Source: an uncultured delta proteobacterium
GTDB lineage: Bacteria; Myxococcota_A; Polyangia; Polyangiales; Polyangiaceae
Direction of reading: 5' to 3'
DNA: 64,000 bases
NCBI GenBank assembly: GCA_963850305.1
Contig: CAWKKR010000007.1
Span: 992,001 to 1,056,000 of the forward strand
Shown: positions 33,178 to 41,869 of the stretch, piece by piece
Layout: every line of letters starts with the position of its first letter
Position numbering within the stretch: the stretch's first letter is position 1
The notes under the pieces: generated by a model
Databases searched by the model: none
Told to the model about the DNA's origin: nothing
The model's input: the letters and a program-made list of their open reading frames with translations, nothing else
Program-made: the position numbers and the translations under genes

Positions 33178-33422
33178 GCTGATGGCGAAGACCGCGGGGT
33201 CAGATCGGCGGGCAAGGCGCGGAGGCGTACGAAGGTACGCCGAGCACCGAGAGCGTCGAGATGGCCCCGTGCTCGAAGCCAGGGGGGAGACGGAGTCAGC
33301 GAAGTGCTGATGGCGAAGACCGCGGGGTCAGATCGGCGGGTAAGGCGCGGAGGCGTACGAAGGTACGCCGAGCACCGAGAGCGTCGAGATGGCCCCGTGC
33401 TCGAAGCCATCAGCACTTCGCT
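33178..33422. repeat. Tandem pair of ~104-bp MITE/REP-like structured repeats; second copy has 17-bp terminal inverted repeats
   Basis: 33178-33281 vs 33306-33409, 1 mismatch; AGCGAAGTGCTGATGGC (33298-33314) / GCCATCAGCACTTCGCT (33406-33422); internal GGCGTAC-GAAG-GTACGCC hairpin. Confidence 0.85.
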
Positions 33423-36400
33423 CAGGAGCAGCCCATGGAGTTGCCGCAGTTCAGACACTTGTAGCAGGCGCCGTTCCGAACCGTGATGTGCCCGCATCCG
33501 TCGCAAACCGGAGCATCGCCCATCATCTCCTCGAGTTGTGCGTCGAGCGCACCGCGCTGGCTCCCGGCGCTGGTCGTCGAAGACGCTTTTTCCTGGAGTC
33601 GGGGCGCCTCAACGGTTCCCGCGGGCTCCTGGAAGCGTGGGGTCATCGGATCATCGATGGCAGCCGTGGGGGCCAAGCTAAAGCTCGTCCCCGTCGATTC
33701 CGCGGGCTGAACCTGTGCGAAGTCGTATCGCTTCAGATATTCGACGCCCAGGACCCGGAAGATGTAATCGACGATGGACGTCGCGAACTTCAGATTCGGA
33801 TGCCCCTCGACCACGCCGTGCGGCTCGAAGCGAGTGAACGTGTATTGCTCGACGTACGTCTCGAGCGGTACGCCGTACTGAAGCCCGATGGATACGGCCA
33901 TGGCGAAACAGTTCATCAGAGAACGAAACGCCGCGCCTTCCTTGTGCATGTCGATGAAGATCTCGCCGAGAGCACCGTCATCGTATTCGCCGGTGCGCAA
34001 GAACACCTTGTGTCCCCCGACACGCGCCTCTTGGGTGAAACCGCGCCGCTTCGTGGGCAATCGAACCCGCCCGCCAGCGGGACGCGCCGAGGTCGCGAGA
34101 GCGGCGCTCGTCCGCGCGGAAGCCTGGCCTTCCTCGGGAGTGGCACTGTCGCCGCTCGACGTGCTGAGCGGCTGTGAAGCCTTGCACCCATCACGGTAGA
34201 GCGCGACGGCCTTCAACCCGAGCCGCCAACCCTCTTCGTAAATCTGGCGGACGTCGTCGGTCGTCGCCTCGTTTGGCAGGTTTACGGTCTTGCTGATGGC
34301 ACCGGAGAGAAACGGCTGCGCAGCGGCCATCATCCGAATGTGGGCCATTGGTGCCAGGAACCGCTTGCCCGTGCGACCGCAGCGGTTCGCGCAATCGAAC
34401 ACGGCTTGGTGATCGTCTCGCAGGTAGGGCGCGCCCTCAATCGTCATGCGACCGATGATCACGTCATTCGCTTCCTCGATCTGAGTTGCCGGGAACCCGA
34501 GGTGCTTCAGGAGCGAGAACCCCGGCTTGGACATCGACGTGGCGCTCACGCCGAGGCGTTCGTACGTTTCTTTGCCGAGCACCCATGGTGCAAACGCGAG
34601 GTGCAAGTCGAACACGCCAGGAATGGCGTCTTCCACCTTTTCGAGATCGTCTTCAGTGAGGCCGGCGGCCTTCAAGGTTCCGCGGTTCACGTGCGGCGCG
34701 CCGAGAAGCGTGTTCGTTCCCGACACGTATGCGACGATCTCTTGCACTTCGGCTTCCGAGTAGCCGAGCTTGCTGAGTGCGTTGGGTACGGACTGATTGA
34801 CGATCTTGAAGTAACCCCCGCCCGCGAGTTTCTTGAATTTTACGAGCGCGAAGTCAGGCTCGATGCCCGTGGTGTCGCAGTCCATCAGGAGGCCAATCGT
34901 GCCAGTCGGCGCGAGGACGGTTGCCTGCGCATTGCGGAAACCGTGGGCCTCGCCCAGGTGGACGACATCGTTCCAATCTTCCACTGCGGCGCGCCACAGT
35001 GCGTCCGGACAGGCGTCTCGATGAATGGCGTACGCCGCTTCCTGGTGCATTCGCATCACGCGAAGCATGGGCTCGCGATTTTTTGCGTAGCCCTCGAACG
35101 GGCCCTTCGATGCGGCAATGAGCGCACTCGTACGGTAGGCGTGCCCGCACAGGATCGCCGTCAAAGCACCGGCGACGGCGCGCCCTTTTTCCGAGTCGTA
35201 CGGAATGCCGAGCAACATGAGCAGTGTTCCGAGGTTCGCGTAGCCGAGTCCGAGCGGACGGTAGTCGTGCGAGTTCTTGGCGATGGGCTGCGTCGGGTAA
35301 GCCGAAAGGTCCACCAAGATCTCCTGGGCCAGGAAGAACACCGCGACTGCGTGACGGTACCCCTCGACGTCGAAAACGCCGTCCGCGCTCAGGAACTTCG
35401 TCAAGTTCAGCGATGCGAGGTTGCACGCTGAGTTGTCGAGGAACATGTACTCGGAGCAAGGATTCGACGCGTTGATGCGCGCGGTGTTCGGGCACGTGTG
35501 CCACCGATTGATCGTCGTGTCGTATTGAAGACCGGGGTCTGCACAGCGCCACGCCGCGTCCGCAATCATGTTCCAGAGATCGCTCGCGTTGTACGTGTCG
35601 ATGACTTCACCCGTCGTGCGCGCGCGTGTCTCCCACTGGCCGCCCGCGAGAGCGAGTTTCATGAAGTCGTCCGTCACTCGAATCGAGTTGTTCGAGTTCT
35701 GGCCGCTGACGGTCTTGTAAGCGTCGCCGTTGAAGTCCGCGTCCATCCCCGAGTCGATCAGGATCTGCGCCTTGCGTTCCTCGCGCACCTTCCACTGGAT
35801 GAAGTCCGCGATCTCGGGATGATCCATGTCCAGGCAGACCATCTTGGCGGCGCGCCGCGTGGTGCCGCCACTCTTCGTCGAACCCGCGGCGCGGTCGAAC
35901 ACCTCGAGGAAGCTCATGAGTCCGCTCGAGGTCCCTCCACCTGAAAGCTTCTCTTGTCGCCCGCGGATGCAGCTGAAGTTCGTCCCAGTGCCCGACCCGT
36001 ACTTGAAGAGGCGCGCCTCGGCCTTCATGAGGTCGTAAATCGACATCAAGTCGTCTTTTGCTTCCTGGATGAAGCATGCCGAGCACTGCGGACGAGCATA
36101 GGCGTTCGCCGTTTCCGTTATCTGGTCGGTCGATGGGCTCCAGGCCCAGTTGCCTCCGGAGCCCTCGATGCCGTACTCGTGGAAGAGTCCGCAGTTGAAC
36201 CATACGGGGGAGTTGAATGCCCCGAACTGGTTTACGAGGAGATAGGAGAGCTCGTCTTCGAACGCGTCGGCGTCTTTCTTCGTCGCGAAGTATCCGCCGA
36301 ACTGCTCGCCCGCCGTACGAATCGTGTGTGCGATGCGCGTCACGACCTGGCGCACGCTCGTCTCGCCCTTCTTGGGATCGCCGTTTATCCCGGCCTTCCT

Positions 36401-36691
36401 GAAATACTTCGAGACGACGATGTCGGTCGCCAGCTGGGACCATCCGGAAGGGATCTCTGCTCCCTCCATCTTGAAGACGACCGAGCCATCGGGATTGTTG
36501 ATGACGCTGCGGCGGCGCTCCCAGACGACCTCGTCGAGCGGTGCAACCCCGGCGGTGCTGTAGCGACGGTCGACGACGATGCCTTTGCGCTTCTTAGCGC
36601 GCTGTTTGGCATCTGCTCCGGTGGCCTGAGACGCTTGTCCCTGAGCACTCTTCATCGATCTGACCTGCCCCACGATCTCTGATTGCGCCAT
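33422..36691 (-). CDS. nrdJ: Class II (B12-dependent) ribonucleotide reductase
   Basis: [33 protein letters not shown]-terminal TSCPD-like domain and CxxC..CxxC ribbon. Confidence 0.97.
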
Positions 36692-36974
36692 TTTTCCTGC
36701 CTCCGTCCACAAAAGTGGGGACACACTTCCCCGCTGGAACCCGACGGCCACGCCGCCCTCCGTACACACACCTGGGTCGTTTGGCTGGTCGTGAGACCCG
36801 CCCTGCTTCTTTGCCCGGTGGATGGGGCGCCAAACGGCGCTCCACCTTCGAGACCTGGACTACCCGCGAACTACCCTGACCGACGACTCCGCTTTCTCTG
36901 TCGCGCAGTGATTTCCGATTAACGAAGTGACCTGCTTCGATGATCAGGCGTCAACCGAGCGAGCTGCCTTCGTA

Positions 36975-37021: not shown

Positions 37022-37272
37022 AGTCCTCACAAACACTGAACAATCCTGCACCGTCTCCACAGGGTCTTCGGCGGCGCCTCGAGCTGAACGCAAGCTCTCC
37101 CCCGAGAGCCCTCAATCTCTCCCGCGGGTAGCCACGGTTTATCCCCAGGAAGCGAGCGTTTCGACCCGCCGCCGGGTGCGAGGGCATAGGAAAGGGGGCC
37201 TTGGCTGCCTTGCCCCCGCGGCTCGCTTCGCGACCGCTCCCCCGCCGCCTTCGGCGCGCTCGCTGCGCTCGC

Positions 37273-37329
37273 GTAGTTCCGCGGCTCTTTGATCCCTCGG
37301 GGACGACGTGCTCGTCGATGCGGAACTAC
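37273..37329. repeat. GTAG-bounded REP-like inverted repeat forming the IS110 target flank
   Basis: GTAGTTCCGC (37273-37282) / GCGGAACTAC (37320-37329), with internal GACGTGCTCGTC hairpin. Confidence 0.65.
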
Positions 37330-37338
37330 TAGGAAGCT

Positions 37339-38571
37339 CTACGCCGCATGAGGTTTGATCTCGACTTCGCAGCCGAGGTCGGTCAAGCGGCGGACGAGGC
37401 GTTTGATGGTCTTGCTCTGGTCGCGGCGGTCGAAGTGATGGGGTCCGAGGTCGCGGTAGGGAGTGCCGTCGCGGAGCATGTAGAAGGCGGCGGTGAGCAT
37501 CGATGCGGCGACGGCCAAGATCGCCTTCTTTGCTCCACGGCGGGACTTGAGCCGGAGAAACTGGGCTCGAAGGTAGCTTTCCTTCGTGCGCACCGCGGCC
37601 CAGGCGGATGTGACGAGCGTCGTCTTGAGCCAGTTGGCGCTCTTGCGGACGCGCGTCGAGCGACGCTTGCCGGCGCTCTCGTCGTTGCGGGGGCAGAGGC
37701 CGGCCCAGGACACGAGGTGTCCCGCAGACGGGAAGCGCGACATGTCGACGCCGATCTCCGCCACGATCACGTTCGCGACGATGTCACTCACTCCCGGCAT
37801 CGTCGTCAGGATCTCGGCGTGCGCCCGGATCGGCTCCAGCGCTTTTCCCGCAGCTGCATCGATCTCGGCCAGGGCCCCTTCGAGCGAGCCGATGACGCCG
37901 AGATGCAGCTTCAGCATGGCTCGGTGATGAGGGGTAACCCGCCCGCGCAGCGCTTCGATCAAGTCGGCCCTCTTCTTGCGCGCGGTACCGACCGCGAGAT
38001 CGGCAAGGCGCTCGGGGTCATCTTCTCCGGCGATGAGAGCGGCGAGCATCGCCCGGCCGCTGGTCCCGAGCACGCTGGACAGGACGCTCGCGACCTTGAT
38101 GTTCGAGTCCTCGAGCGTTTTCTGTATGCGCAGCGTGTGCTGGGCGATTTCTCGCACGAGCTGCTTGCGCGTTCGAGTGAGATCGCGCAGCTCCTGGATT
38201 CGCGCAGGAGGCACGAAACTGCTGCGGATCAGCCCGTGCGCGAGCAGATCGGCGATCCACGTCGCGTCGTTCACGTCGGTCTTGCGCCCTGGCACGTTGC
38301 GAATGTGCTGGGCGTTCGCGAGCACGAGTTCGAAGCTCCCTTCGAGCATGTGCCAGACCGGCTTCCAGTACACGCCGGTGGCCTCCATCGCCACGTGGGT
38401 CACGCCGTGCTCCTCGAGCCATTCCGCCAGCTCGAAGAGGCTACGTGTGGTCGTGCCGAACGTTCGGACCTCGCGCCGCGTTGGTTCGCTGACGCAGCGC
38501 ACGCAGGCAACGACGCTATCCTTGTGGACGTCGAGGCCCGCGCAACGGGGATACATGACTTCCATGACCAT
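37339..38571 (-). CDS. IS110 family DEDD recombinase/transposase
   Basis: GLDVHKD, MEATGVYW, KTDVNDA (DEDD RuvC-like) and ESAGK serine motif; RBS AGGAGG. Confidence 0.97.
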   Translation of the reverse strand: MVMEVMYPRCAGLDVHKDSVVACVRCVSEPTRREVRTFGTTTRSLFELAEWLEEHGVTHVAMEATGVYWKPVWHMLEGSFELVLANAQHIRNVPGRKTDVNDATWIADLLAHGLIRSSFVPPARIQELRDLTRTRKQLVREIAQHTLRIQKTLEDSNIKVASVLSSVLGTSGRAMLAALIAGEDDPERLADLAVGTARKKRADLIEALRGRVTPHHRAMLKLHLGVIGSLEGALAEIDAAAGKALEPIRAHAEILTTMPGVSDIVANVIVAEIGVDMSRFPSAGHLVSWAGLCPRNDESAGKRRSTRVRKSANWLKTTLVTSAWAAVRTKESYLRAQFLRLKSRRGAKKAILAVAASMLTAAFYMLRDGTPYRDLGPHHFDRRDQSKTIKRLVRRLTDLGCEVEIKPHAA

Positions 38572-38582
38572 CTCCTCCTTTC

Positions 38583-38737
38583 GGCGCGTCGAGAGGAGCC
38601 CTCGTCATCGAAGTCTACTAGGCGTGCTCCCGGATCTTTCGACCCGCGGTCACAATTCGGGGTGCTCGCAGGGCTCCGGGTCCATCTACTGAACGGGTTC
38701 TTGGCACCAAGTCACGGCCGACCTCGTTCCCGACGCC
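38583..38737 (-). ncRNA. Putative IS110 bridge/seek RNA
   Basis: Closing stem GGCGTCGGG/CTCGACGC; stem GGAGCCCT/AGGGCTCC; two parallel loops with TCAGTAG (target) and CCTAGTAGA (circle junction); TATCCT -10 candidate at 38743-38748. Confidence 0.75.
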
Positions 38738-38837
38738 GCGGCAGGATACACTCGACTCCACCGTCCACGCGACGACCCGAGCTTCATGCTTCGGGGAAGG
38801 CGCTCTCGCCGATGGGCATCTACTGAGCCTGCCGAGA

Positions 38838-40442
38838 TCAGGTGCCTTCGACGCGCGGGAGCTCGATGGCGGCTGTCGGATCCTGGGGGATGGTGGTTTT
38901 CGTGACGAACTCGTGTTCGGCGTCGACGATCTTGACCGTGCCGAAATGGCTGAGGGGCTTCCCGAGCCGTGCAGCGTCGCCTGCGACGACGATGAGCGCT
39001 TGGTTCTGTTTGAAATACTGACTCGAAAATTCGAAGACGTTGTTCTTCGTGATGCCGCGAACCGCCTCGCGGTACGTGTCGTAGTAATCGACCGGTAAGT
39101 CGAACACGCCCAGATCGCTCGTGAGGCTCGCGATCGAGGACACCGTGTCGACGCCGACGAGGAACACGTCCGACAGATAGTGCGTCGCGATCTCGACCTC
39201 GTCGTCCGTCGGCGGCGCCTTGCCGATCGCGTCGAAGTGAGAAAGGAGCGCGTCGAGAGTGAGCCCGGCCTTGGCCGTCTGCGTCCCTGCGGACAGGACG
39301 ATCGGCACGGGCCCGTGAGCGAGCGGTTCGACCGTCGAGCGTGTGCTGTACGCGAGCGATTGCTTCTCACGCACATCGAGGAACAAGCGTCCCGCAACGC
39401 CGCCGCCGAGGATCTGGTTCGTCACGCGAAGAGCGGGCCATTCGGGGCTTTTCCGCTCGGGCCCAAGTGTCGCGACGAAGACGTCCGCCTGCGGACTCGC
39501 CGGTCTATCGACGAGGAAAACCACGGGCGCGGGCGGGCGCGGGAGCGGAGGTGCAAAAACCGGCGCGTCGGGCGCATCGCCGGACCACGTCCCGAAGGCG
39601 CGCTTGGCTTCGTCGCTGGCCGTCTTCTCATCCACGTCACCGGCGAGGACGAGGAATGCGTTCTTGGCGGTGAACTGGCGCTTGTGCCAGTCCTTGCAGT
39701 CGGCGAGACGTATCCCATCAATCTCCTTCGCCGTCGCGTCGTACCGCGAGTAGGGGTGCACGCTCGTGGGCAGGTCGAAAAGTTCGCGGTAAAGCACCAT
39801 CGACGCGACCCAGCCCCCGCTGGTGCGGGCGAGGCTCGAGACGCGGTCCATTTCGCGCCGCTTCAGCTTCTGGAATTCGCCGAAGTCGAACCGTGGCTTC
39901 AGCGCGACCGCCGCGAGGATGTCCATCGCTTCCGGGAAGTGGTCCTTCGTGACCGCCATCGTGATGCGTGTGGAGTCGCGATCCGTCGTGACGTCGAGAT
40001 CCGACCCGAGCGACTCGGCCGCGTCGAGGAGCGCACGACTCGGCCACTTGCCGGCACCACCGGCCTTGAGCAACTCGCCCGCGACCGCCGCGAGTCCTGG
40101 CTTCGAACCGTCCGTCGCCGAGCCGCTCCTCACCACCAGCTCGAGCTGTACGAGCGGTAGAGCGTGTCGCTCCACGATTCGCACGAGAAGTCCCTTGTCC
40201 AGGGTCACGTCCTTCACGGCCGGGAACTTCCAGTCGGGGGTCACACCCGGCGGGGGAACGGTGGCGAGCGGATCGGGCGCCGTCGCCGTCGGTGCGACCG
40301 GAGGGACCGCGCTTGCCACCGGCGGGGAAGCAGGTGTCGGCGGCGCTGCCGGCGGCCGCGAGGGCGCTGCCGAACAGCCCGTGAGCATCAACGTTGCGGC
40401 GACCCGTCGAAAGGTCGAGGCGGTCGTGGGCCAGCGTCTCAT
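38838..40442 (-). CDS. M16 family peptidase, non-catalytic subunit (lipoprotein)
   Basis: M16 fold without HxxEH; RLFLDVREKQSLAYS; lipobox LTGC. Confidence 0.9.
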   Translation of the reverse strand: MRRWPTTASTFRRVAATLMLTGCSAAPSRPPAAPPTPASPPVASAVPPVAPTATAPDPLATVPPPGVTPDWKFPAVKDVTLDKGLLVRIVERHALPLVQLELVVRSGSATDGSKPGLAAVAGELLKAGGAGKWPSRALLDAAESLGSDLDVTTDRDSTRITMAVTKDHFPEAMDILAAVALKPRFDFGEFQKLKRREMDRVSSLARTSGGWVASMVLYRELFDLPTSVHPYSRYDATAKEIDGIRLADCKDWHKRQFTAKNAFLVLAGDVDEKTASDEAKRAFGTWSGDAPDAPVFAPPLPRPPAPVVFLVDRPASPQADVFVATLGPERKSPEWPALRVTNQILGGGVAGRLFLDVREKQSLAYSTRSTVEPLAHGPVPIVLSAGTQTAKAGLTLDALLSHFDAIGKAPPTDDEVEIATHYLSDVFLVGVDTVSSIASLTSDLGVFDLPVDYYDTYREAVRGITKNNVFEFSSQYFKQNQALIVVAGDAARLGKPLSHFGTVKIVDAEHEFVTKTTIPQDPTAAIELPRVEGT

Positions 40443-41869
40443 TTGGTTTTCTCCTTCGCCTTGCCGGAATCAGCCGTGTTCGATGGCTCCACGATCACGG
40501 TGCTCGCCTTGTCCTTCGTCAGGTATTTCCGCACGGCGTCCCTGACTTGCGCGCCCGTGACGGCCTTGAAGCGTGAGACTTCGCGCGAGAGCAGACGCGC
40601 GTCGCCCCAGAACAGCTCGAACTCCCCGAGCTCGGTGGCGCGATGCAGATTGGACTCGAGCCCGAACAGGAACTGCGAGGAGATGCGCGTCTTGGCCTTG
40701 GCGAGCTCCTCCGCGGTCGGGGCCGTGGTTGCCAGACGGGCGATCTCGGAGTCGAGGACCGCATCGACACCCTTTGGCTTCGCGCTGTCGCTGAGCACCG
40801 CCTGAATGACGAAGAAGTCCGGGCCGCGCTGGTCGTTGGTCCAGACGGCCACGTTTTGTGCCTTGGAATCCGTCCGCACCAGGCGCTGGTAAAGCCGCGA
40901 GCTCTCGCCGTCTCCGAGGATGTACGCCGCGACCTCGAGCGCATAGTGCTCCGGTGTCCGATCCGGTGGGATGACCCAGCCCTTCAGCACCGCCGGCGTT
41001 TGCGCGTTCGTATCCGTCACCTCCGCTTGTCGGGGCGCTGTCTGCGGGGGAAGGGGGGGCGGGCCGTAAACCGGTGGCTTCTTCTGGTTCGCGCCGATGC
41101 CGCCGAAGTCCTCGCGCACGAGACGCATGGCCTCGTCCGGGTCGAAATCGCCCGCGATCGTGAGAACGGCATTTTCAGGCGAATAATACTCCTGGTGGAA
41201 GGCCGCGACCTGTCCGAACTTCGCGGCGTCGAGATCCGCCATCGACCCGATCGGGTCGTGCTCGTAGGGAAAGTAACCCTGGAAGGCGAGTGCGCGGAGC
41301 TTGATCAGGCCCTCGGCGTAGGCCTGATTCGAGACGCGCATCCGGTATTCTTCCTCGACCACCGCGCGTTGATTTTCGACGTTGGCGGGCGTGACGGCGA
41401 GGCTCTTCATGCGATCGGCCTCGAGGAACAAGGCGACGGGCAACTCGCTCGAAGGCAGCATCTCGAAGTAGTTCGTGCGATCCGTGCCCGTCGTGCCGTT
41501 CAGGGTTCCGCCGCGCGCGGTGATGAGCTTGAAGTGTTCGCCCTTCGCGACGTGTCCGCTTCCCTGGAACATCATGTGCTCGAACAGGTGCGCGAAGCCG
41601 CTCTTGCCCGGCTCTTCGTTCCGCGAGCCGACGTCGTACGTCACGCAGACCGCGACGTTCGGCGCGTCGTGGTCGACGTTGAGAACGACGCGCAGGCCGT
41701 TCTCCAGCATCACGCGCTGGATGGACAGCGCGAGATCCCCCGTCCCGGAGTCCGATGGTGACGGAACGGCAGCCTTCGCCGACGGGGCTCCGGCAAGCCG
41801 CACCCCCGCGACCATGCCGGCGATGACGGGCGCAAAGAGCCGAGCTTTCGAGCGTGATGGATGCGTCAC
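40439..41869 (-). CDS. M16 family zinc peptidase, catalytic subunit
   Basis: GFAHLFEHMMFQGS inverted zinc motif. Confidence 0.95.
   Translation of the reverse strand: MTHPSRSKARLFAPVIAGMVAGVRLAGAPSAKAAVPSPSDSGTGDLALSIQRVMLENGLRVVLNVDHDAPNVAVCVTYDVGSRNEEPGKSGFAHLFEHMMFQGSGHVAKGEHFKLITARGGTLNGTTGTDRTNYFEMLPSSELPVALFLEADRMKSLAVTPANVENQRAVVEEEYRMRVSNQAYAEGLIKLRALAFQGYFPYEHDPIGSMADLDAAKFGQVAAFHQEYYSPENAVLTIAGDFDPDEAMRLVREDFGGIGANQKKPPVYGPPPLPPQTAPRQAEVTDTNAQTPAVLKGWVIPPDRTPEHYALEVAAYILGDGESSRLYQRLVRTDSKAQNVAVWTNDQRGPDFFVIQAVLSDSAKPKGVDAVLDSEIARLATTAPTAEELAKAKTRISSQFLFGLESNLHRATELGEFELFWGDARLLSREVSRFKAVTGAQVRDAVRKYLTKDKASTVIVEPSNTADSGKAKEKTK

Follow-up and report, generated by a model that had tools for sequence, protein, structure and literature searches.

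The locus described here raises the question of how an RNA-guided recombinase recognises the DNA that it moves. The window, by which we mean the whole stretch of 64,000 nucleotides that was analysed, is positions 992,001 to 1,056,000 of contig CAWKKR010000007.1 from an uncultured delta proteobacterium of the Polyangiaceae (assembly GCA_963850305.1). It carries at 37326-38819 a copy of an insertion sequence (IS) of the IS110 family, with a recombinase gene and, upstream of the gene, a predicted bridge RNA, and the ends of the IS are shared by a family of MITEs (miniature inverted-repeat transposable elements). Comparison with homologs shows that the four guides predicted in this RNA covary with DNA. 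Our verdict from these comparisons is that the element appears to work like IS621 on the target side and to depart from it on the donor side. We think it fairly probable that the system is an IS110-group bridge recombinase with the loop architecture of IS621, for which a single strand folded back on itself serves as donor. On the wider proposition, that a long-transposase branch of IS110 (this clade over several phyla, with ISPpu9 as a probable and IS110 itself as a possible member) reads a folded single-stranded donor with its bridge RNA, we are evenly divided. Features given below are on the minus strand of the window, which is the gene strand, unless stated otherwise.

Recombinase, predicted bridge RNA and target guides

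The recombinase open reading frame (ORF, 37339-38571) encodes 410 aa, matches PF01548 and PF02371, is above the NCBIfam NF033542 cut-off and has an E value of 1e-12 to 8wt6. It has the RuvC-like DEDD domain and the Tnp domain with catalytic serine that are expected in the IS110 family, and the initial annotation of this locus was right in calling it intact, as D14, E63, D99, D102 and S299 are unchanged in 25/25 aligned homologs.

The genome has eight copies of the IS, with ORF identities of 99.76-100% and a 1-bp insertion in one copy, and these are its only PF02371 matches. TCAGTAG is found immediately left of the IS in seven of the eight, and the right end, CTAGT plus core AG (37326-37332), is identical in all eight. 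The core has two base pairs, which read AG on the gene strand and CT on the plus strand, and in homologs that differ in target and donor the common bases are limited to these two. The element is thus 1,494 bp, from 37326 to 38819, and the end at 38824 first proposed, which took in the whole of the repeated CTACT, has to be moved. The motifs themselves are where they had been placed: CTACT at 37326 and 38820, CTACTGA at 38686-38692 and TCTACTAGG at 38614-38622. The short AG core at both junctions and the specific target are typical of the IS110 family, and a long left end that holds the RNA (248 nt) together with a short right end (13 nt) is the arrangement of the IS110 group.

Homologs came from 121 fetched loci plus congeners, of which 108 had enough upstream sequence and 95 could be anchored (13 of the 108 were without anchors); two were mis-anchored, and the 93 kept fall into 30 clusters, with L035, L085 and L114 also left out of particular tests. 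The RNA alignment has 54 sequences. As the homologs are related, p values at row level are too optimistic.

The predicted bridge RNA (38583-38737) has an outer helix that closes two arms, and in each arm there is a guide loop internally. In the alignment 92.4% of the cells are paired in this closed three-way fold and 25 of the 38 pairs are changed on both sides; none of 500 shuffles equalled it and slid controls were also far lower, both kinds of control flattering the fold because the structure was derived from that same alignment. The closed multibranch fold of the initial annotation is supported by this covariation, and not by single-sequence folds, which score like shuffles (z -0.69 and +0.69) and were kept out of the evidence. 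Rfam gave no match for the RNA. A TAnnnT hexamer is immediately upstream of it in 55/65 homolog RNAs, as against 1/65 in the adjoining interval, and here is the -10-like TATCCT at 38743-38748, which suggests that the RNA promoter lies inside the element; a sigma-70 scan detected no promoter.

With two internal loops, and guides that covary with target and donor, the RNA has what is expected of a bridge RNA. Both of the guides that had been read from the window, on the 3' sides of the loops, are real. The first is in the target loop and is TCAGT, core AG and handshake AT (38684-38692), in the place of the right target guide (RTG) and handshake guide (HSG) of IS621. It reads the left junction, where the target half TCAGT plus core AG is at 38820-38826 (CT-ACTGA on the plus strand), and matches the flank on the element's own left side, with no mismatch in 22 of 26 clusters (null 0.9). 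The second, in the donor loop, is CTAGT, core AG and handshake AC (38613-38621, at the right donor guide (RDG) and HSG), and equals the element's own right end, perfectly in 19/29 clusters (null 1.4). Chance would give about one in each case and crossed controls were null, which bears out the covariation with flanks and right ends that had been anticipated. Multi-copy elements of Alicyclobacillus and Variovorax define their ends without use of the guides, and those ends agree with the guide-based ones.

Each loop also has a 5' guide, and these had been overlooked. That of the target loop, GCCGTGA plus core CT (38710-38718), is at the left target guide (LTG) position of IS621 and pairs in part with the flank past the right end: at +1 to +4 the loop strand is complementary to that flank at 100/200 positions, with 50 expected by chance. 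The first GTGA-C[hairpin]G module, taken initially as scaffold, is thus to be reinterpreted, since its GTGAC is variable guide and its TTGG/CCAA hairpin is unconserved.

The two bases past the core in the target loop are the same as LE+1 and +2 (LE, left end) in 72/75 rows, being AT/AT in this element and AC/AC or TG/TG in multi-copy elements elsewhere. The partner positions are 6-7, as in IS621, and the dinucleotide corresponds to the IS621 handshake as described in the accessible part of PMC11208158. Tracking by the donor-loop handshake is weak (8/25 against 6.0). In the IS621 template, as given in the portion of the PMC11208160 supplement available, the order is 7 L + 2 core, spacer, then 5 R + 2 core + 2 handshake, and the target loop fits it at every position if the DNA is read on the plus strand of the window, where the core is CT. 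The layout of the loop is therefore that of IS621, and the DNA site has its orientation reversed with respect to the gene. Judged by this register and the covariation, target recognition shows the pattern of an ordinary duplex, with a strict 3' guide on the plus strand and a loose 5' guide on the minus strand. The wider interpretation in the initial annotation thus holds up in part: an RNA-guided IS110 with a multibranch fold and readable guides that have been naturally reprogrammed is supported by the covariation, and the statement that the layout is unlike that of IS621 is incorrect in that form.

The displaced donor site

In the characterised systems that we compared, so far as the accessible portions of their descriptions go, the two donor guides are on opposite strands. 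In IS621 they are also beside the core, and this is not what we find here. A junction-anchored scan of LE+1 to +16 and a complement test found no complement to the donor loop 5' strand in the core-adjacent left end. A donor 5' guide emerged only with anchoring on an inner motif, GAAR at LE+30 to +42, and it is a same-sense match to a site 12 to 6 nt before that motif. In this element the guide is ACCCCGA (38657-38663, the left donor guide (LDG) position of IS621) and the displaced site is LE+23 to +29 (38791-38797). The same-sense best-match test gave 5.84 against 4.93 over 25 clusters (p 5e-5), the complement being null. At fixed register 96/125 positions match, where the null is 60.1, the maximum over 20,000 permutations was 80 and shifted registers gave 29-59. 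The match was replicated in 27 rows outside the pattern discovery (p 1.5e-4, complement again null).

Duplication can produce same-sense identity, and the match could then be functionless, reflecting shared ancestry or gene conversion between left end and loop. We regard this as very improbable, as tracking of the displaced site is limited to guide columns 92-96, and the variable neighbouring columns 89 (23/60 against 22.3) and 98 (9/60 against 9.1) do not track it. An RNA-RNA partner for the donor 5' guide was also considered and rejected, the best z among the RNA columns being 3.3.

Two further features flank the displaced site. The first is a subterminal inverted repeat, with its left arm GAAGCTC at LE+35 (38779-38785) and its right arm GAGCTTC at 37333-37339, abutting the stop codon. 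The left GAAR arm is perfect over 5 bp with the right-end arm, which is beside the 5-nt guide site, in 35/36 rows. Positions 1-3 of the repeat served as anchor, and positions 4 and 5 covary (35/36 and 36/36, with 19.7 and 22.5 expected), as does position 6. When the arm was predicted from the right end alone it was located at +31 to +39 in 17/21 new rows, and in the folded junction the repeat pairs in 28/36 own combinations as against 8/36 crossed ones. At 5-8 bp, perfect, covarying and asymmetric, the repeat exceeds the 2-3 bp of the IS110 group and is below most IS1111 repeats. The second feature is a hairpin between the core and the displaced site, here GGCG-AGAG-CGCC (38799-38810), which starts at +7 to +10 (mode +8) and ends at the site. 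A stem of at least 4 bp is found at this register in 18/25 clusters (null 2.6) and 48/59 rows (null 5.8), with stem sequences that are unrelated between clusters.

One could take the RNA to be an ordinary bridge RNA that uses only a half-match to the right end, with a role for the features of the left end in regulation at the RNA level, for example by Asr9-like antisense pairing with the donor loop. Half-match recombination has been reported, ISPpu9 has Asr9 (PMC12288879, portions searched), and some homologs show a weak donor 5' match. We nevertheless consider this quite unlikely, as one arm of the inverted repeat has its covarying partner some 1.45 kb off, at the opposite end of the element, the left-end features are upstream of the conserved -10, their register yields the same 14-nt window as in IS621, and the MITEs retain them.

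On the reading that we prefer, the plus strand of the donor would fold back, either as a circle of single-stranded DNA or in an extruded junction, with the inverted repeat and the hairpin as its two flanking stems, the hairpin being the predicted left one. The resulting bubble would have a top arm of 7 nt + CT + 5 nt, which is the 14-nt window of IS621, with LE+1 to +7 (38813-38819) as its unpaired left part, and the displaced site would be on a bottom arm of 12 nt. As each of the two donor guides has the sense of the gene strand, both would pair with the plus strand. The recombinase would cut and exchange that strand alone at CT, with help from the handshake, and replication would complete the insertion (copy-out, paste-in). 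The same pairing could bring both ends of a linear element together on one strand for excision. Single-strand or top-strand-only steps have been reported for IS621 and CazIS110-1 (10.1101/2025.10.25.684509 and 10.64898/2026.08.31.748434, in the parts accessible).

Several points weigh against the fold-back donor, for which the support is all comparative. The fixed-register match is just 3-4 of 7 in 6/17 new rows. Folding energies give no choice between the two strands (28 against 28), the folded bottom arm is 2 nt shorter than its duplex counterpart, and insertions have no replication-strand bias (25 against 22, with 15 unclear). The right flanks of the MITEs follow the donor handshake (A in 10/20) and not the target 5' guide (T in 1/20). 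Six ISPpu9-like loci have RNA fold scores of 24.8-52.7 bits, with 3' guides, hairpin and repeat present by eye, but their donor 5' match is by eye 3-5 of 7, at a different spacing and nearly invariant. In the available parts of the literature an ISPpu9 mutant in the palindrome of the A box still forms circles (PMC12288879), so that the hairpin may be dispensable for excision, and CazIS110-1 had, at one junction, a preference of about 20-fold for a double-stranded donor (10.1101/2025.10.25.684509, 10.64898/2026.08.31.748434).

The last two points would fit better with the same contacts being made on duplex DNA, the donor 5' guide opening the displaced site in a looped or second duplex and the protein binding the repeats as in IS1111, followed by a normal Holliday-junction reaction, as would the binding of IS621 excision substrates across both loops, on the portion of that work available. 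This alternative leaves unexplained why a hairpin runs from +8 to the displaced site in so many clusters. The displaced site is also in the wrong orientation, and only some 25 bp separate it from the core, a length over which a duplex could not make a U-turn. We judge the duplex alternative unlikely, and retain the folded single strand as the better account of the donor.

The MITE family

The MITE of the window is at 37187-37325, directly beside the IS, with a left end like that of the IS and a right end like that of the IS that is cut short in this copy. There are 77 hits to the repeat in the genome, 8 of which were left out as they do not have the left-end pattern, and the 69 MITE left ends comprise 54 solo, 7 beside an IS, 6 in tandem and 2 within the RNA gene of an IS. 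The hairpin is retained in 55 of the 61 with the motif and the displaced donor site in 45/61 at 6 of 7 positions. TCAGTAG is matched at 6 or 7 of 7 by 34/56 of the solo or in-RNA copies. A congener carries the repeat too. In two of the eight IS copies a MITE is inside the target guide of the RNA, which is itself a target sequence, and the other six have an uninterrupted guide, giving filled and empty alleles. The family is non-coding, shares both ends with the IS and has filled and empty alleles, as expected of an IS110-dependent MITE. Since ends and target are shared and there is no other IS110 in the assembly, we infer that this recombinase moves, in trans, a MITE which still has the hairpin and the donor site together with the inverted repeat and the right end. 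A check on covariation of the first base of the repeat among the MITEs gave 5/22 as against 0/8, numbers too small for a conclusion.

The 68 TCAGTAG sites in the genome are made up of 44 that are empty, 11 filled by a MITE, 7 filled by the IS and 6 that are the RNA guide. A MITE borders seven of the eight IS copies, and the location of these IS at MITE junctions is above that for uniform choice (p ~0.001). The target 5' guide accounts for this preference only partly, as 9/44 empty sites score equally well. The empty site reconstructed in the initial annotation is not host DNA, as its right half is the left end of a MITE and the site is hence a MITE junction. The IS would then re-insert at MITE left junctions and MITEs would insert in the RNA gene's own guide. 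Elements would stack because only the strict half-site matters and every left junction regenerates it, and such one-sided strict targeting would account both for the stacked elements of this genome and for the tandem arrays of homologs.

It is also possible for the IS and MITE to travel as one composite, like ISPpu9 with ssr9, an alternative that concerns the MITE only. It would account for the MITE that adjoins seven of the eight IS copies, and the MITEs adjacent to an IS are more alike than random MITEs (5.3 against 10.5 differences, p 0.004). An IS relative of 95% identity also has a MITE adjacent. These adjacent MITEs nonetheless differ at 0-12 of 84 nt and in length, where the ORFs beside them are 99.76-100% identical, and two IS copies with the same in-RNA insert differ in whether there is an adjacent MITE. 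We are doubtful of the composite, and prefer insertion of the IS at MITE junctions.

Several individual loci are of interest. The copies at C5:149215 and C8:718271 (L001 and L009) have an identical 129-nt MITE in the target guide, with donor sequence remaining beside the closing stem of the loop; they differ at ORF positions 406-407 and in the adjacent MITE, and one or two insertion events fit equally. At C6:104327, C1:546052 and C8:1022309 a non-consensus core-proximal variant (AGCAG, AGGAG and AGTAC) is the same at both ends of the MITE, which is unexpected from a 2-bp core, and other variant loci do not have such matching. Many MITE right ends, including that at 37187-37194 in the window, stop after CCTAG or CCTA, which suggests that the crossover took place at the first AG or that sequence was lost within TAGTAG. 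At 37273-37282 the MITE carries an inverted copy of its own first ten bases that can fold over the entire left box. The IS does not have this copy, which might favour IS insertion at MITE junctions, in the manner of the target stem-loop for ISPpu10. In genome G129 a repeat (L134-L151) combines the internal unit of the MITE with different ends (GAG at its two junctions). This 91%-complete genome yielded no recombinase to go with the repeat; its four IS110 matches share long regions downstream and do not match the RNA model.

Among the homologs, a tandem IS array on a Variovorax plasmid (L167/L186/L190) has 14 bp of target at each internal junction, as if a circle had formed at an upstream AG. 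In the set L168-L171 and L213-L217, Caballeronia copies share one site within an IS3-family element, and several ISPpu9-like elements target an A-rich site, with flanks that by eye resemble transposase sequence.

The IS of the window is intergenic, its neighbours being a class II ribonucleotide reductase gene (33422-36769) and genes for two M16 peptidase subunits (38838-41869). No host empty site was found at the orthologous peptidase locus in six congeners, as this locus is non-syntenic downstream in them. Four low-coverage contig sets had no end-to-end circle joint of the IS, and one MITE joint of tandem or circle type that is from another organism.

Significance and comparison with known systems

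Whether IS110 intermediates are single- or double-stranded is under debate, and if both donor guides read one strand then the clade would be built for a single-stranded donor. Standard 14-bp donors would be predicted to fail for this branch, and junction-centred mining, with 25-nt windows and four guide sites required, would miss its fourth guide. The branch would also offer an integrase, programmable by RNA, that inserts single-stranded DNA in duplex targets, and the fold, beyond the 14 bases, would decide what can be mobilised, MITEs included. Working members occur in cultured bacteria, with relatives in Cupriavidus, Caballeronia and Alicyclobacillus. In this genome the bridge recombinase apparently feeds 69 MITEs and disrupts its own guide gene. 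In IS200/IS605 peel-and-paste elements and in integron attC sites a folded single strand is the recombination substrate, with different enzymes and no separate guide RNA, and the fold-back donor, if true, would link RNA-guided recombinases to peel-and-paste transposons.

The clade appears to be catalogued already, as the domain sequences of the representative of an ISfinder cluster (ISAfe3, ISAisp4, ISAzo28, ISCARN97, ISCla1, ISCsa3, ISGka2 and ISSto4; Durrant Supplementary Table 1, in the part available) are close by eye. Bridge RNAs are also predicted for most IS110s (PMC11208160, accessible text), and an IS110 with readable guides is therefore ordinary. The searchable supplements have no RNA or donor model for that cluster. 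Neither a displaced same-strand donor guide nor an inverted site is described in the searched portions of the literature, which include 10.64898/2026.08.14.744561, 10.1101/2025.05.14.653916, PMC13626964, 10.1101/2024.06.21.599552 and 10.64898/2026.03.19.712850; subscription papers, patents, figures, one PMC11208160 supplement and preprint supplements (Fig. S12 of 10.64898/2026.10.21.760802, 86 RNA models) were outside the search.

The comparisons that follow are with the accessible portions of the papers cited. ISPpu9 with MITEPpu9 (PMC12288879) resembles the present system in its gene-strand AG core, its 43-bp left box with a palindrome and 16-bp right box, and its internal promoter; it is also a precedent for an adjacent MITE with the same ends, and its protein motifs resemble the clade by eye. 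On our reading of the table in that paper, the A box has at its end a 6-mer with complementarity to the B box, at a distance of 5 nt from the core. However its authors describe a group without inverted repeats, there are 8 MITE copies as against 69 here, and the guides are unmapped in the text portions searched.

The IS1111 seekRNA systems (PMC11187229) also have subterminal inverted repeats, and in their RNA the top-strand match precedes the bottom-strand match. In seekRNA terms our element, although its RNA is upstream, has by its sequence the order of the IS1111 type. The IS1111 RNAs in contrast are downstream, the repeats are longer (7-17 bp) and the proteins are 330-350 aa; the present element has neither the downstream non-coding region nor a protein of that size.

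With regard to IS621 (PMC11208160, PMC11208158, PMC13626964), the likeness covers the DEDD and serine recombinase, an RNA upstream of the gene with the target loop before the donor loop, the register of L7 and core, spacer, then R5, core and handshake, the CT core, and AT at donor positions 6-7. The IS621 protein has 328 aa as against 410 here, and in our element the long guide is on the 3' strand, an outer helix closes the RNA and the promoter looks internal. The real departures in guide arrangement, as predicted from the comparisons above, are the inversion of the site relative to the gene, the short or weak 5' guides, and the reading of a displaced, same-strand site by the donor 5' guide, where that of IS621 reads the opposite strand beside the core.
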